This document shows, piece after piece, positions 42,001-51,000 of a stretch of DNA of 64,000 nt (its first letter is position 1; each line of letters opens with the position of its first letter). This DNA comes from an uncultured Pseudomonadota bacterium (GTDB lineage: Bacteria; Oederibacteriota; Muellerivitia; Muellerivitales; Muellerivitaceae). Position numbers: made by a program. The stretch spans positions 256,001 through 320,000 of the forward strand of contig CAVYRH010000005.1 in assembly GCA_963770835.1 (NCBI GenBank), written 5' to 3'.

Positions 42001-45000
42001 GGCTTTTTCGCACTCTGAAACCAGCATTTCGACGATGTCCTTCGCCGAATGGTCACAAAAAAGCTGACCAAGTTTCTTTTCGTGGAAGGGGATTTGGTGT
42101 TCCTTAACGAGATTTATAAAATCCGTGGGGGTGAAGCGGGACAAGGCGGATTTGCAGAAGTGGGGGTTTTGGGAGACATAGTTTTCCGGCCCTGCGCCCG
42201 TATTGGTGAAGTTGCACCGGCCCCCGCCGGAAATGAGGATTTTCGCCCCCACTTTATCGGCGTGGTCAAGGAGAGCCACCTTTCGGCCCCTTTTGCCCGC
42301 TTCCCGGGCGCACATTAGGCCCGCGCCGCCCGCGCCGATGACCACCACATCGAAGGTTTCCATGGGCCTATCCTATGCAAAACTCCATTTGAATCCATCG
42401 AAACAAGAGGTAGGGCGTCGTGCCTTTCTTCGGTATCCTGTGTTTTCCCGGGAATTGAAAAATTTACCAAGAGAAGTATTGCAAACCCCGGAAACTAGGT
42501 GACAATGTTGCCACGCCCGCTGGTTTTGAAGAACCGAATATCCGAGGGCGGGCGAGGTTGGCCATGAGGTGCAGGGGTTTTCGGACGATTGATTCCAGGG
42601 GCCATTTATGAACGTCCCCAAAATATTTTTGCTTCTTTTTTCCGCGATATTTTTGACCACTGTACCCGGCTGGTCGGCGGTGGACGCGACCTCGACCCAG
42701 GCTACTTTTTCCTCGGTCACCGGAAATGTAACCCTCCAAGGCCCCAACTCCAAAAAGAAAACAACGGTCAACCTTAACTCCACGGCCCAGGAGGGCGACC
42801 GGGTCACCACCGGGAAAGATTCTTCGGCCACGCTGGTCCTCTTCGATGGCTCCCAACTGCAAATCGGCGCCCAATCCTCCCTTATCCTTTCCAGCCTTCA
42901 AAAACCCTCCGCGCTCGACAAGATTTTAAAATTCAGACTTTTGGTGGGCCGGGTTTTGGCGAAAGTAATGAAACTTACTTCGGCCAAATCCTCCTTTGAA
43001 ATCCAGGCGGGCGGGGTGGTTTGCGGCGTGCGGGGGACGGTCTACTCGATGCACTACCAACCCGAAGCCCAAACGGTGGATTTGTCCGTTACCGAGGGAA
43101 CGGTTTATACCTCGGTGAACGGCGGGCCCGCGAGCAACGTCAACGCCGGCCAGACCCTGCATCTCACCAAGGTTTCGGGTTCTAATTCCAATGGCAACTC
43201 GACATCGACCGGAACAGGGTCCAAGTCCAAAGGCCAGCAGCAGGCGTCTTCTACGAGTAATTCCGGCAATGGAACCGGCGGCGCCGGCACTACGCTGACA
43301 AACGGCGGAGTCGTTATCGGAAAGGGAACCGGCAACGGCGGAGCCGGGTTAGGCGCGAGCAATACCGCAGCTTATAGCAATCCTGGGGGAACCACGGTGG
43401 TTTACGGCGGGAGCACCACAGTGGTATACGGCGAAACCACCACTAAGGTTGTCAACGGGGTCACCGTGGTCACCTACGGCGAATCCACCACATTGAAAAA
43501 CGGCGGAGTCGGTTTAAGCCCAAACAAACTCTCATCCTATAGTGGGGGCATCACCACCTACTCAAACCCCATTACCAGTAAAAGCGGCCAGGATTCCTGG
43601 CTTGCCCCCGGCTCGGGTTCAGGCGGTGGCGGTTCCACCGGAACCTCGAATACCGGCGTCAACTCCACCGGGTCTTCCGGTAACGGCGCCAACACCAGCA
43701 ACGGAGCTAACGGGAACAGCGGCGGTCCTTCCACCTTCACTAATACTTTGACCAGCAAGGCCGGTCAGGATTCCTGGCTCGGCCCCGGCTCGGGCACCGG
43801 CGGTTCCCCCGGAGCCTCGAATACCGGGAACGGCAACGGCTCCGGCAAACACATCCGAAAAGCCAGCCCCTATCTGAGTATGGGCAATACGACTGGAAAC
43901 AACGGCTCGAACGGGAAAAACATCAACATCACCAGTTTCAGCTTTAACACCGGCGCCACTACGTTGACCTCCTCCCAATCCAACACCATCAGCGGTACCG
44001 TCAGCGCGACGGACAGTTGGTTGGGCCCGGGCTCAGGGAGCTCGAACTCCTCCAACGGGAATGGCGGCGCCACCAAGAGCAACGGCGTCAGTGCCACTGG
44101 TGCGACGGACGATTGGAACGCCCAGGGCCCGACGAATTCGACCTCCTCCCAATCCAACACCATCAGCGGTACCGTCAGCGCGACGGACAATTGGCTGGGC
44201 CCGGGCCCAGGGAGTTCGAACTCCTCCAATGGCAACAGCGGCAGCAGTTCCGCTTCCCCTACCATTGCCGGCCCCGGCAACAACATTAACTACAGCGGCA
44301 CTCTCACCATCAACTCCACCAGCACCCTCACCGTCACGGGCGGGAACCTGGGCAACATTGGCAACGGCGGCATCAGCTTCACCACCACCAGCCCCGCCAC
44401 ACTGACAGGCGTGAACCTGGGCAATAACGCGGGTACCGGCATTATTACCTTCAACCCCAACAGCATCGTCACCCTGACGGGTGTGAACCTCGGCCCTGCC
44501 CCAGGCAACGGCACCTTTACCTTCATTCCCAGCAGTACCGTCACCGTGACGGGTGTAAACCTCGGCCCGGGCCCGGGCAACGGCACCTTCACCCTCAACG
44601 GCAACAGTACGATCGGGTTCACCGGCGCGAATTCCGGTACAGGCAACAACCCCTATACCGTCACTGTCACCGTCACCGCAACCAACCCCGCCACCCTCAC
44701 GGGCCTCAACATTGGCCCTGGCCCCGGCAACGCCACAGTCACCTTCATCCCCACCAACCCCGTTCCCACCGTCAACAACCTTGATAACCCGGCCCTGACC
44801 GTGTTGGACACTACCTTCCAGTCGGGCATCCTGGTGAACGGCGAGAACGGCCTGGGCCTTGCCAACCGCAACCAGGTCATCCTTCTGCTGGTCCCTCCCC
44901 AAGAGGCCGTACCATGAGGCCCTGGAAAACCCGGCTCCTATGCCTTTTCATTTGGATACTTTCCGGTGCGGTTTTCGCGGGCCAGTTGGGCCTGGGCTTC

Positions 45001-48000: not shown

Positions 48001-51000
48001 AACCACCACTACCACCCCTACGCCTTCGGCCACCCCCACCAGCACCCTCGGCCCCGGGGACATCATCACCGTGGCGGGCAATGGGACGGCCGGTTTCGGG
48101 GGTGACAGCGGGAAAGCGGTCACCGCCGAGCTGAGTGGCCCCTCGGGAATAGCGGTGGACTCCTCGGGCAACCTCTATATCGCGGACTCTTTAAATAATC
48201 GGATCCGGAAGGTGGACACGAACGGAAACATCTCAACGGTGGCGGGAAACGGAACGGCGGGATATTCGGGCGACGGGGGCTTAGCCACTTCGGCGGAGCT
48301 GCTCCAACCCTGGGGAGTCGCCGTGGATTCCTCCGGAAATCTTTATATTTCCGACTGGCAGTACAATGTCATCCGGGAGGTCTCCGGCGGGATCATCAAC
48401 ACCATCGCGGGCTACAACCAAGCAACCCCCCCATCTTGCGCCTCCAATTGGACGGGTTTCCAGGGCGACGGCGGGCCGGCCACCTGCGGCGAGCTTCAAT
48501 ACTCCACCGGAATCGCCTTGGACTCCTCGGGCAACCTCTATATCGGGGACACGAATGACCACCGGATCCGCGAGGTCTCGGGCGGGATCATCAACACCAT
48601 CGCCGGCGGAGGCGTGGGTTCCGGTTTCACCGACGGCGAAGCGGCCACCCTCGCGGGCATGGCGGGCCCCTATCAGGCGGTGGTGGACTCCTCCTCCAAC
48701 ATCTACATTTCCGATTTATCAACCCAGGAAATCTATGAAGTTTCATCAGGAAATATAACGCTGTTGGCGGGAACCGGGTTGCAGGGTTACTCGGGCGACG
48801 GGGGGACGGCCACCTCGGCGGAGCTGGACAGCCCCAGGGGAATCGCGGTGGATTCCTCGGGCAACGTCTATTTCGCGGATGCTTACAACCAAGTGATCCG
48901 GAAGATCAGCGGCGGCATCATCTCCCTTTACGCGGGTTCGTCCACCATCGTGGGAAGCACCACCTCTGGCGTGGGGGGGTACTCGGGCGACGGAGGGCCG
49001 GCCACCTCCGCCAAGCTTAGTCAACCCGCGGGAGTCGCCGTGGATTCCGCCGGAAACCTTTATATCGCGGACACCAGCAACAACGTGATCCGAAAGGTGC
49101 TCCATTAAGGCCTGGCCAGGACTGTGATGAGTCCGTGGTTCTCTAGGATACCTACGGGCATCGCGGTGGATGGAAACGGGTTCATCTACGTGGCTGACGC
49201 GGGTCTTTGGATCGTCGGGATATTCAACCCAGGGTAACCTTAAAAATCAAACGGCAAGGAGGCTTCGATGAAGACATTGACTTGGGTTTTTATTATTTTC
49301 ATGGCGGTCTTGGGAGTTTGCCGCGCGCAAGACGATAATCCGGGCGACGGCAATCCAACGGCCACTGCCAAACCCAAATTCCAACCCATCGAGATCCAGA
49401 CCTTCGGGTGGGGGAACCACGCCACGAACGGGTTCTATTACAACGGTTTGCCCCTGACGGATCCGCGGGACTTCGAGCGGGTCATTGACCCCCTCAACGA
49501 CGCCCAGGCCAGCCAAATGCTCCGTTCCGCCGCGGACGAGAGCGGCTGGGGGACGGGCCTTTTGGTGGGGGGTATCGCGTTGGAAGCGGCGGGTTGGGTG
49601 GATTTCACCGTCGTGATGGCATCCTTGGCGTCCGATACCGGGGATAAAGGCCCCGATATAGGACCGTCCTTGATCATGATCCTGGGGGGAACCGGGATAT
49701 GGGTCGGGGGCCTGCTTTTGGATGTCAACGCGGGCAACGACCGCTACAACGCCGTCAATCGCTACAACTATGTGGTCCAGCATGGTAATGGCCTGTCCTT
49801 GATGTTCCTGCCTGATACCCAGAAACCGGGCTTAGCTTTTACCCAACGCTTTTAATCCATCTAAACTTAAAATCGCCCGGAAAATATCTTTCATCGTCCG
49901 GCGCATTTCAAATTTATTGTTCTAAAGTTGTCCACGGCGGGGAACCCCGCACCCCAGAGCGGGGCAGTGGCATTGGACAAACAAATTAACCAAATGAAGG
50001 AGGCGATTGTGCGGAGATCGAAATCGATAGGGAAGATCAGTTTGGCCCTGGGTCTAATTTTATTGGGCATGAATTATTTGGGCTGCTCAAGCTCTGATAA
50101 CGAAGCCGACAGCAAGGCCTACGTGGATAAAGTTGCGCCGGTCATATTCAAGGATTGGGATACGACTCTTATTTTGGCGGAAGCCGATCCGGATTTGAAG
50201 AATTACGCTGACACAAATAAAGAAGTCTTCGAGAAAGGTATCCAATCCTTCAAGGATGCGGTCGGTTCCATGAAAGCTTACAAAGGCGCAACCCTTTTGG
50301 GAAAACCCACCGAGGGACCGGACCATACAGTTGTTGCCGCTTATTCCGTTGAGGCTGATTTTGAGAAAGGGACCAGTAAGATTATGCTGACCACTACCCT
50401 CCGTGATGGGAAATGGCAGATGGGCCTTTTTAACCTAGATCCGCAGGCTGAGCTACAAAGGATGACAAAGGCCATGACCCCGAACCCCTAAACAACCGGA
50501 TGAGCCGGGAGTTTCTGCGGCCTTGCTAAACCATTAGTCTTTTGCTGACGAAAACTTTGTCCACGACGGGGACCCATCGTGGACATCGTGCCAGAGGAGG
50601 GTTTGCAGAGCCAGCAGGTGAGGGAGTAGGCCGATGAGGGTCAACCCAAGTCCTGACCAGGTAATCACCAGAGAGCCTGGAAGTCAGCCCCCGGCGTAGG
50701 ATCGAGAGGTCCTGCCCGAAACGGGGTCATAAACCTCATTTAGTGAGGGAACAATCCAGCAGTCCGCAACATCAAGTGAATCCTGCCGCTTCGTGAATGG
50801 GACACCGAAAGGTGCAAGGGGATGCCGAGCCGCGTGTCTACTGGCGAAGGCCACGATCCCGCTGAAGAATCTGGTAGCAAGCGGGGCAAGTCCTCCGGAG
50901 TATGGGGAACGGAATGTTGGAAAGGCTATGCAAGCAAGCTGGGAGATCCTACCCGCCAAAAGACTTGCCGCTATAAGGCTAAAACCGAAAAGAGGCAAGG

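Follow-up and report, generated by a model that had tools for sequence, protein, structure and literature searches.

The question raised by this locus is what is served by an FecR-domain protein encoded together with an outer-membrane beta-barrel and a lipoprotein, when no sigma factor or TonB receptor accompanies them. The survey's finding had read the set as a dedicated export or display channel for surface lipoproteins, plugged in trans by the tail of the FecR protein. The evidence assembled here leans, if modestly, towards the three genes forming the outer half of an envelope-spanning signal relay, the likely output of which is a single CHASE2 adenylate cyclase; by analogy, this relay is likely to be a rebuilt version of one known from rhizobia (NsrA-CyaK). 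Within the window, a stretch of 64,000 nucleotides, the locus (42608..49108) comprises three ORFs on the + strand, all of which were recovered as the survey had outlined them, except for the start of the third:

42608..44917, + strand: secreted FecR-domain protein, 769 aa, with a signal peptide of about 23 aa (judged by eye), FecR domain, linker and conserved tail
42797..43105, + strand: FecR domain core PF04773, residues 64-166 (Pfam match, E 3.6e-13)
44306..44610, + strand: tandem repeats in the linker, about four of 72 bp (24 aa)
44765..44914, + strand: conserved tail of the FecR protein, about 45-50 aa, the putative tether (alignment; secondary structure by eye)
44914..46029, + strand: outer-membrane beta-barrel, 371 aa (349 mature), predicted 16 strands (ORF, AlphaFold model)
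45253..45345, + strand: most conserved stretch of the barrel, with a PTG motif, a short helix and the long loop after strand 5 (alignment columns P92-G122; model)
46013..49108, + strand: lipoprotein, 1,031 aa from ATG 46013 (start and lipobox by eye)
46076..46426, + strand: lipoprotein subdomain 1, predicted beta-sandwich
46427..46846, + strand: lipoprotein subdomain 2, predicted HmuY-like fold
48101..49069, + strand: NHL / teneurin-type NHL beta-propeller, the variable cargo of the window copy (Pfam match)

The start codon of the barrel gene overlaps the stop codon of the FecR gene (ATGA), and scans against shuffled sequences revealed no excess of promoters (6 versus 4.0) or terminators (5 versus 10.4). 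The lipoprotein start had been placed at 45941, but ATG 46013 is most likely the start instead, with a lipobox (LLVG-C, by eye) whose Cys is encoded at 46070. Five such operons are present in the genome, as the survey had counted, on contigs C4, C5 (the window copy), C16, C19 and C26. The gene order it described also holds more widely: 46 of 47 barrels have an FecR gene immediately upstream, and 40 of the 47 have the lipoprotein N-domain no more than 2.5 kb away; two further, divergent lipoproteins were also seen. The barrel is not restricted to one family, as had been proposed, and is found in 24/24 same-family genomes and in 2/2 genomes of a second family (f9), with none in the 14 remaining genomes examined outside these two families. 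Counted together, 27 of 41 genomes possess the barrel and 26 of 41 the lipoprotein domain, and the same genomes share both. The distant barrels mentioned in the survey do exist, in proteins labelled Nitrospirota and Nitrospinota; one distant barrel, P0127, gave no plasmid match.

The FecR protein appears to be secreted rather than membrane-anchored, judging by eye from its signal peptide, and PF04773 is its only Pfam domain. An FecR profile matched only 5ix9 among solved structures, over 64 residues. Its linker spans about 530 aa rich in Gly, Asn, Ser and Thr, and leads to a tail that consists of an LxDLxxQF helix-like motif, an Asn/Gly loop, a terminal strand of alternating hydrophobic residues and a PPxExVP end (secondary structure by eye). 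The classical FecI-FecR-FecA system likewise uses an FecR domain that acts between the outer and inner membranes, but its receptor is a 22-strand TonB-dependent protein with a plug and a signalling domain, and it relies on an ECF sigma factor and a membrane-anchored anti-sigma FecR. The window system has no sigma factor nearby and an FecR protein that does not appear to be membrane-anchored, and its barrel is of 16 predicted strands and 349 aa; no sigma family was represented among 72 flanking ORFs, where the survey's statement that sigma factor and TonB receptor are both lacking was borne out.

The 16-strand barrel described previously is reproduced by an AlphaFold model (pLDDT 95.9), with 16 membrane strands counted from its strand list. 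The best VIA match stands at Z 18.5 (rmsd 3.3, 264 aligned, 6% identity), level with porins; the top fold match, though tied with porins, is the TpsB exporter CdiB, over its barrel part alone and at 6% identity. In the model, the mature chain is predicted to be barrel only, with strand 1 beginning at mature residue 2 and no plug of its own, and no POTRA domain is present. The description of the barrel as unclassified is upheld: the window barrel has no Pfam family over the cut-off, and 68 of 69 aligned barrels have no Pfam barrel family, the single exception being an Autotransporter match (E 1.8e-5). None of the 69 matches a TonB-receptor family in Pfam or SlipAM/DUF560 (PF04575). The sole PF04575 match of the genome, a weak one, sits elsewhere, at C5:229836 (contig position). 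A sequence search returned no solved relative at E 10, Foldseek with the model returned generic barrels only, and TPR occurs as an extension on some barrels only. Within the PTG motif, P92 is nearly invariant and G94 invariant, and the motif is invariant in the distant clade too; the conserved PTG loop may itself narrow the lumen. COG4313, SphA and FapF (PF13557) are described as sharing a PTG motif ahead of a long loop, but they possess 12 strands versus the 16 predicted here, and their fold matches are at Z 12.6-12.8. PF13557 itself is found in 0/69 close barrels, exceeds the cut-off in 5/40 distant homologues and is carried by 16% of members of the nearest ESM Atlas cluster. FapF, a 12-strand PTG-motif barrel with a helical plug, is reported to secrete protein (PMC5557850, in the portion available); its plug helix is N-terminal in the same chain, and the window barrel possesses no such helix.

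The window lipoprotein consists of a conserved 270-aa N-domain, Pro/Thr-rich linkers and the C-terminal NHL propeller. The largest lipoprotein of the genome is, as reported, a protein of 2,301 aa on C4. Variable C-terminal cargo, a feature claimed for all copies, is present in the window and C4 copies, whereas the other three of the five genome lipoproteins have none, as is true of 22 of 41 lipoproteins overall; the largest cargo reaches 4,852 aa, and cargo domains include NHL, LRR and malectin. For predicted subdomain 1, the closest folds are those of pilotins (ExsB at Z 8.2 and a Vibrio pilotin at Z 8.0), near the tool's stated background. Subdomain 2 is predicted to share the fold of PinO (Z 10.8, rmsd 2.5, 115 aligned) and of the haemophore HmuY (Z 9.8). 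It possesses a conserved Cys pair; His and Met are absent from its invariant or nearly invariant columns. By sequence, the best match of the lipoprotein domain to a solved structure was at E 2.1, Foldseek returned nothing for the lipoprotein at E 0.001, and its ESM Atlas matches, at 0.81 or lower, are no more than leads.

What the tail does is suggested by a distant clade of barrels, homologous to the window family at a profile probability of 99.8%. In 40 of its 41 loci, a CsgG-like/TPR partner takes the place of FecR, and a Ser/Thr kinase lies beside 28 of 41. Of 40 loci, only 12 include a lipoprotein gene, the other 28 having barrel and partner without one. Where there is a lipoprotein gene, all 11 distinct partners end in a beta-strand-like motif; where there is none, 0 of 21 do, a rule that is post hoc and draws on three independent pairs (sign test p 0.25). 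What is new is a homologous barrel with a CsgG-like/TPR partner whose end strand tracks the lipoprotein gene. Because the end strand of the partner occurs only with a lipoprotein gene, we infer from these sequence patterns that the last strand of the tail probably holds the lipoprotein, so that the tail would be more than a plug for the pore. In the window's own family, four loci (L037, L051, L099 and L114) keep part or all of the terminal strand without a downstream lipoprotein. Profile comparison detected no similarity between the FecR-type and CsgG-type tails (probability 0.1%), and subdomain 1 was only weakly similar to the N-domain of lipoproteins encoded next to distant barrels (probability 43%, E 2.5e-4, 99 columns). 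When the barrel, the lipoprotein N-domain and the tail were predicted as one complex, the tail scored 0.84, 0.84 and 0.82, and 0.01 and 0.02 when it was replaced; replacing the barrel with an unrelated protein still gave 0.84, which leaves no margin over that control; the three-chain score may stem from a kept chain and speaks neither for nor against the complex. Natural FecR-like-barrel fusions, to which the survey had appealed, do not carry the tail in cis in either case seen (L050 and L100), and their loci retain a separate FecR-tail gene upstream.

The kinase, PP2C phosphatase and FHA genes of the distant clade, found once with type VI secretion genes, recall the Pseudomonas TagQRST-PpkA-PppA-Fha1 pathway, in which envelope proteins are joined to a membrane Ser/Thr kinase, a PP2C phosphatase and an FHA protein. 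The likeness is confined to that clade, where the envelope part is the barrel family with CsgG-like/TPR, and is absent from the window's region. No literature joining CsgG-like, PEGA, threonine kinase and outer membrane was found.

The window's family is tied to a different output. A fourth member, absent from the survey, is encoded 290 bp ahead of the C16 copy: the only CHASE2 adenylate cyclase of the genome, and the one full CHASE2 cyclase among its 14 cyclase matches (cNMP-binding domain matches number 17). The system is therefore not one without an output. The CHASE2 cyclase adjoins module genes on the same strand in 20 of the 24 family genomes that possess it, this genome included; in the others it is unlinked (two) or the locus is cut off (two). 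The 20 linked genomes are not independent, because the linkage traces to a single inherited locus, the flanks of which (ABC-2 transporter, MarC and NAD kinase) are equally well kept, and two genomes (G002 and G004) have the cyclase at that locus without the module. The deepest split in a quick tree of 47 barrels has cyclase-linked members on either side, and the cyclase-linked copy is likely ancestral. Four of the five copies in this genome, the window's among them, lack a nearby cyclase. Non-CHASE2 cyclases near L032, L069 and L225 were set aside, being about as frequent as chance would give with 14 cyclase matches per genome (a rough estimate). No phosphodiesterase was seen beside the module loci.

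FecR-CHASE2 gene pairing recurs independently. At the CHASE2 loci of other families, FecR is close by in only 2 of 12 and at 5-8 kb in two more, which counts against the relay; two other families of the phylum (L079 and L083) pair FecR and CHASE2 with another barrel, and the pairing is also present on Ruegeria and Shinella plasmids. In Burkholderia, FecR is reported to be paired with a CHASE2 kinase (PMC5192318, available text). In Campylobacterota, a CHASE2 cyclase clusters with an FecR-domain envelope protein, and the two have been proposed to act in one pathway (PMC9239204); that cluster has a phosphodiesterase, its FecR-domain protein is of the outer membrane and a TPR protein is present, and the accessible part of the paper describes no paralogue expansion or lipoprotein cargo. 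The closest parallel is NsrA with CyaK, CyaD1 and CyaD2 of Sinorhizobium meliloti, a tested signalling route in the portions available of PMC7529298 and PMC13001267, which likewise joins an outer-membrane barrel, a periplasmic FecR domain and an adjacent CHASE2 class III cyclase. The window FecR domain matches that of an NsrA-like S. meliloti protein, taken as NsrA by position and size from an unannotated record, with an hhalign probability of 93.7% (E 1.9e-7). That protein is a single 1,209-aa FecR-TPR-barrel chain upstream of a CHASE2 cyclase, whereas the window system encodes FecR and a barrel of 349 aa as separate proteins. The S. meliloti barrel region of about 600 aa shows no detectable relation to the window barrel (probability 0.3% for residues 601-1209, with a single-sequence template), and the tail, the putative join, and the lipoprotein family belong only to the window system. 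Cyclase adjacency as in NsrA-CyaK is true of the C16 copy and not of the window copy; in S. meliloti, one receptor is described as serving cyclases encoded elsewhere (PMC7529298, in part).

In the favoured relay, the barrel would hold the FecR protein by its conserved tail, and the last strand of the tail would pair with the first beta-sandwich of the lipoprotein, tying a lipoprotein displayed at the surface to the FecR domain in the periplasm. Ligand binding or load on the variable cargo would shift the tail, and the FecR domain would then alter the activity of the inner-membrane cyclase. Duplicated copies, the window's included, which have gained long cargo and linkers, would act on that cyclase in trans; alternatively, they may now serve display only. 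A wider generalisation, put forward tentatively and possible rather than probable, is that the barrel family is a socket whose lumen is crossed by the tail of a separate periplasmic protein, with a last strand that grips a surface lipoprotein, and that interchangeable heads (FecR or CsgG-like/TPR) wire the socket to a CHASE2 cyclase or a Ser/Thr kinase, giving energy-independent sensing with swappable adhesin-like antennae.

A rather unlikely alternative is a platform for display or export only, in which the lipoprotein N-domain targets and anchors, the tail acts as a gate or chaperone for the barrel, and the cyclase reflects inherited gene order or regulates expression. This was the survey's reading, parts of which are kept in the favoured relay as well. 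The barrel, the tail protein and the lipoprotein still stand as dedicated partners, and display is plausible because barrel and lipoprotein domain share genomes and because four cargo lipoproteins (626-1,595 aa) have neither a barrel nor an FecR gene within about 8 kb. The size and variety of the cargo, the PF13557 matches in distant barrels (the family of the secreting FapF) and the tied CdiB match are also consistent with this alternative. An export channel is weak, however, because the distant clade keeps the partner in nearly every locus and the lipoprotein gene in under a third, and a dedicated exporter fits poorly because over half of lipoproteins have no cargo. Omp85 and TpsB exporters place POTRA domains before a 16-strand barrel, and the window barrel has none. 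Type XI secretion (Slam) similarly sets a barrel gene beside a lipoprotein gene, with a TPR extension in some members, but Slam barrels are of the SlipAM type with 14 strands, and the window system adds a periplasmic partner. Display or export alone would leave unexplained both the invariant FecR domain, a known partner of CHASE2 sensors, and the cluster of kinase genes that accompanies the distant clade.

Improbable, too, is an import porin opened by a periplasmic partner, with the lipoprotein as a ligand-binding lid like those of the SusC/SusD and HmuR/HmuY import barrels: the porin-like 16-strand fold, the HmuY-like subdomain and the glycoside hydrolase genes that follow three loci agree with it, but the HmuY-like part has no conserved His or Met, the 72 flanking ORFs include no consistent transporter or catabolic neighbours, there is no TonB plug and the cargo varies freely. 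There is similarly little chance of a pilotin-like collar, in which the lipoprotein N-domain and tail meet at the periplasmic face to assemble and anchor the barrel and only the lipoprotein linker of some copies crosses the lumen; the pilotin matches and the cargo-less majority suit it, but those Z-scores are at background, HmuY-fold proteins are surface lipoproteins, and multi-kilodalton adhesin-like cargo must sit outside.

The input of CHASE2 sensors is described as largely unknown (PMC5192318, available text), and NsrA-CyaK is the one tested input route, with no mechanism described in the accessible parts of its sources. No literature joining CHASE2, lipoprotein and beta-barrel was found, and a search joining FecR, lipoprotein, barrel and adenylate cyclase across the envelope brought up only a TonB paper. 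The hosts of the module seen here are uncultured. The proposed relay is split into small parts, and each step, from lipoprotein, tail peptide and barrel to FecR domain and cyclase, is therefore testable. If the tail does tie the lipoprotein to the periplasmic domain through the barrel, the system would combine lipoprotein display with outer-membrane signalling without TonB, and the pairing of a single barrel family with two heads and two outputs that are unrelated would illustrate how such relays are rewired.

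An ORF check bore out the positions that the survey's finding had given for the three module genes in the window, which are listed here with the other features of the stretch.

Window 32276-40534, +: 2,752-aa glycine-rich ORF, autotransporter-like by eye, with no Pfam family at E 0.1
Window 42608-44917: FecR-domain gene (Pfam: FecR), with an ATGA overlap with the barrel start
Window 44914-46029: barrel gene, overlapping the lipoprotein gene; no Pfam family over the cut-off
Window 46013 (likely start ATG): lipoprotein gene, lipobox LLVG-C (by eye), Pfam: NHL repeats
Window 50642-51385, +: what remains of a group II intron, recognised by Rfam D1-D4-4 (50642-50774) and Intron_gpII (51235-51385); the interval between these two parts lacks a long reverse-transcriptase ORF
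Window 53126-54169, -: transposase-like ORF seemingly splitting a D-Ala-D-Ala dipeptidase-like gene (52563-53000 and 54285-54656), by eye

A tblastn search combined with local profiles recovered five barrels and as many lipoprotein N-domains from the genome, and no others, all in the order FecR-barrel-lipoprotein, in agreement with the five operons proposed earlier. The barrel had been described as family-wide and family-only; the first holds (24/24 same-family genomes), but the second does not, as the barrel is also present in 2/2 genomes of another family, f9, and is found in 0/14 other genomes searched. The lipoprotein domain was found in 24 same-family genomes, one genome of f9 and none of the other 14. 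Neighbourhoods were counted at 45 loci, 5 of the genome itself and 40 of relatives, which together hold 47 barrels: as the survey had indicated, a FecR gene lies directly upstream of 46/47 barrels, the single miss being on a 1.7-kb contig, a lipoprotein N-domain lies at most 2.5 kb away from 40/47, and neither a sigma factor nor a TonB receptor occurs among 72 flanking ORFs. A natural fusion of a FecR-like protein to a barrel does exist, and two were seen; both lack the tail and each keeps a separate FecR-tail gene, so that the FecR-tail protein looks indispensable to the module from these gene arrangements. Seven more FecR-domain ORFs without a module barrel are present on contigs C3, C4, C5, C19, C20 and C26, and the six that were inspected have no neighbours in common.

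The AlphaFold model of the mature barrel chain (69 sequences, pLDDT 95.9) possesses the 16 membrane strands previously claimed, by an independent count. Strand 1 is preceded by no separate domain, and strand 5 is followed by a loop that contains a helix. This loop opens with a PTG motif, shows the highest conservation in the barrel alignment, and could already narrow the pore. The best fold match, for which a Z of 18.6 had been given, is CdiB (Z 18.5, rmsd 3.3, 264 aligned, 6% identity), and others are chitoporin and OprB (Z 17.8), COG4313 (12.8) and FapF (12.6); for this predicted structure, such matches are generic. A barrel profile search returned 548 clusters with an E of at most 0.001, including the distant barrels reported earlier, which are proteins of about 380 aa labelled Nitrospirota and Nitrospinota, and 5/40 proteins scanned from its list passed the PF13557 cut-off. 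FapF is described as combining PTG motifs and 12 strands with a helical plug within one chain (PMC5557850), and the module barrel, with its 16 strands, is better placed as a remote relative of the PF13557/FapF group than as a member. The lipoprotein N-domain is predicted (pLDDT 89) to consist of a first subdomain, a beta-sandwich whose best match, the pilotin ExsB, is near background (Z 8.2), and an HmuY-like second one, which matches PinO (Z 10.8, rmsd 2.5, 115 aligned).

A fourth gene, missed by the survey, is a CHASE2 adenylate cyclase located 290 bp upstream of the module copy on contig C16, and it is the sole one with a full CHASE2 domain among 14 cyclase hits in the genome. The long CHASE2 gene is present in 24/25 family genomes, this one included, and adjoins module genes on the same strand in 20 of the 24, among which G022 is counted on coordinates only, G008 has a lipoprotein gene after the cyclase and then a contig end, and G005, G012 and G023 have a long intervening lipoprotein. 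In two genomes (G002 and G004) the cyclase has no adjoining module genes, and in two more (G003 and G010) the locus is cut off by a contig end. In a quick, midpoint-rooted tree of the 47 barrels, the deepest split has cyclase-linked members on either side, which suggests that the linkage is old and that duplication came later. Within the family the linkage represents one inherited locus, whose flanks are equally stable. Outside the family, 12 CHASE2 loci were examined: FecR is close by in only 2 and at 5-8 kb in 2 more. The two with FecR close by, from two other families of the phylum (L079:7270-14283 and L083:5392-11671), encode a CHASE2 cyclase, an Ig-like protein, a FecR protein and a 790-830-aa protein, the last with a barrel-like end by eye, no Pfam match and no match to the module-barrel profile. 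At a further locus, L076:5011-19569, a lipoprotein of the module family lies between cyclase and FecR gene; it is 4,852 aa long and contains NHL repeats as well as four malectin stretches.

The pairing of FecR with CHASE2 is already known. Published work describes such clusters in Campylobacterota (PMC9239204) and, together with a kinase, in Burkholderia (PMC5192318), and reports that in S. meliloti plant signals activate CHASE2 cyclases only when the outer-membrane protein NsrA is present (PMC7529298, PMC13001267). An unannotated plasmid record of S. meliloti has, ahead of a CHASE2 cyclase, a gene for a 1,209-aa protein with FecR and TPR domains, which is taken for NsrA because of its position and size. 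The FecR domain of this protein is homologous to the module's (probability 93.7%), whereas its barrel region exhibits no detectable homology to the module barrel (probability 0.3%). Ruegeria and Shinella plasmids likewise carry CHASE2-type cyclases preceded by FecR genes. Six barrels of the module-barrel family (P0016, P0017, P0019, P0020, P0053 and P0068) have an N-terminal TPR extension echoing the TPR part of NsrA. In its working the module may be likened to a split version of the NsrA-CyaK relay, but it falls outside that system on architecture and barrel family, and it belongs to none of Slam, TpsB and FecIRA. S. meliloti also has a FecR-domain protein described as dispensable for signal perception (PMC5498481), and therefore not every FecR-domain protein of this kind is a relay.

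The distant barrels (15-sequence alignment) are homologous to the module barrel (probability 99.8%, E 1.6e-27, 317 columns). Of 173 metagenome loci the best 80 were available, and the analysis covered the 41 of these that measure 6 kb or more, several of them near-identical; they contained no FecR, CHASE2 or cyclase matches. A secreted CsgG-like/TPR protein is encoded upstream of the barrel in 40/41, and a Ser/Thr kinase is present in 28/41, in most cases accompanied by genes for PP2C, FHA and trypsin-like proteins; at L144:9471-17146, the barrel and kinase cluster adjoin type VI secretion genes (TssJ, TssK). Twelve of the 40 loci with the CsgG-like/TPR partner encode a lipoprotein with a conserved N-domain, which bears a weak likeness to the first subdomain of the module lipoprotein (probability 43%, E 2.5e-4), and with cargo that varies between Ig, fn3, cadherin and beta-helix types. 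The partner bears its own conserved tail, similar in layout to the FecR tail by eye and without detectable homology to it.

The distinct partner ends, 32 in all, were compared for an alternating hydrophobic motif within their final 16 residues, defined by a rule written after the data were seen. It is present in 11/11 with a lipoprotein gene, including L170, where that gene is downstream of the barrel, and in 0/21 without one. On a FastTree phylogeny of 39 rows, with L154 and L182 left out, the rule comes down to 3 independent pairs, none of them discordant (p 0.25). The tail end is altered in the FCPU426 (FecR-type) sister loci L057 and L059, which have no lipoprotein, and is retained, in part or whole, in four other lipoprotein-less FCPU426 loci. 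No report of this strand-lipoprotein covariation, or of a shared barrel with swapped heads and outputs, came up in literature searches of an open-licence library.

The lipoproteins bear on whether the module serves display or export alone, which is a rather unlikely explanation. After one cut ORF was dropped, 22 of 41 lipoproteins stop right after the N-domain and 19 bear at least 200 aa of cargo, with NHL, LRR and malectin domains among it and lengths of up to 4,852 aa. Eleven regions were fetched as a check on lipoproteins and linkage, of which three were cut by contig ends and four turned out to have barrels; the other four encode a cargo lipoprotein, and about 8 kb to each side of it is free of barrel and FecR genes, and the N-domain therefore looks like a docking tag usable in trans, judging from gene positions. 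Directly after the C26 module copy, at C26:232241-236728 and so outside the window, lie about eight small secreted low-complexity proteins in a row, three with LNPQP[LY]PP and several with an N-LP-x-V-x-K-like ending, a run not seen at the sister loci L057 and L059; these could be substrates or amyloid-like peptides. No consistent transporter neighbour occurs among the 72 module-flanking ORFs, and import, like a periplasmic collar, is quite improbable.

Taking gene sets, linkage and homologies together with the predicted folds, the working of the module as a whole is best explained, with modest confidence, as a relay from barrel, tail and lipoprotein to an inner-membrane cyclase. The barrel would act as a socket that keeps the helical part of the tail in all cases, and the last strand of the tail would bind the lipoprotein, either by way of the lumen or on the periplasmic side. 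The window copy, with its 530-aa linker and NHL cargo, would either signal in trans or only display, and the head domain may talk to an inner-membrane enzyme, the CHASE2 cyclase here and the kinase in the distant clade.
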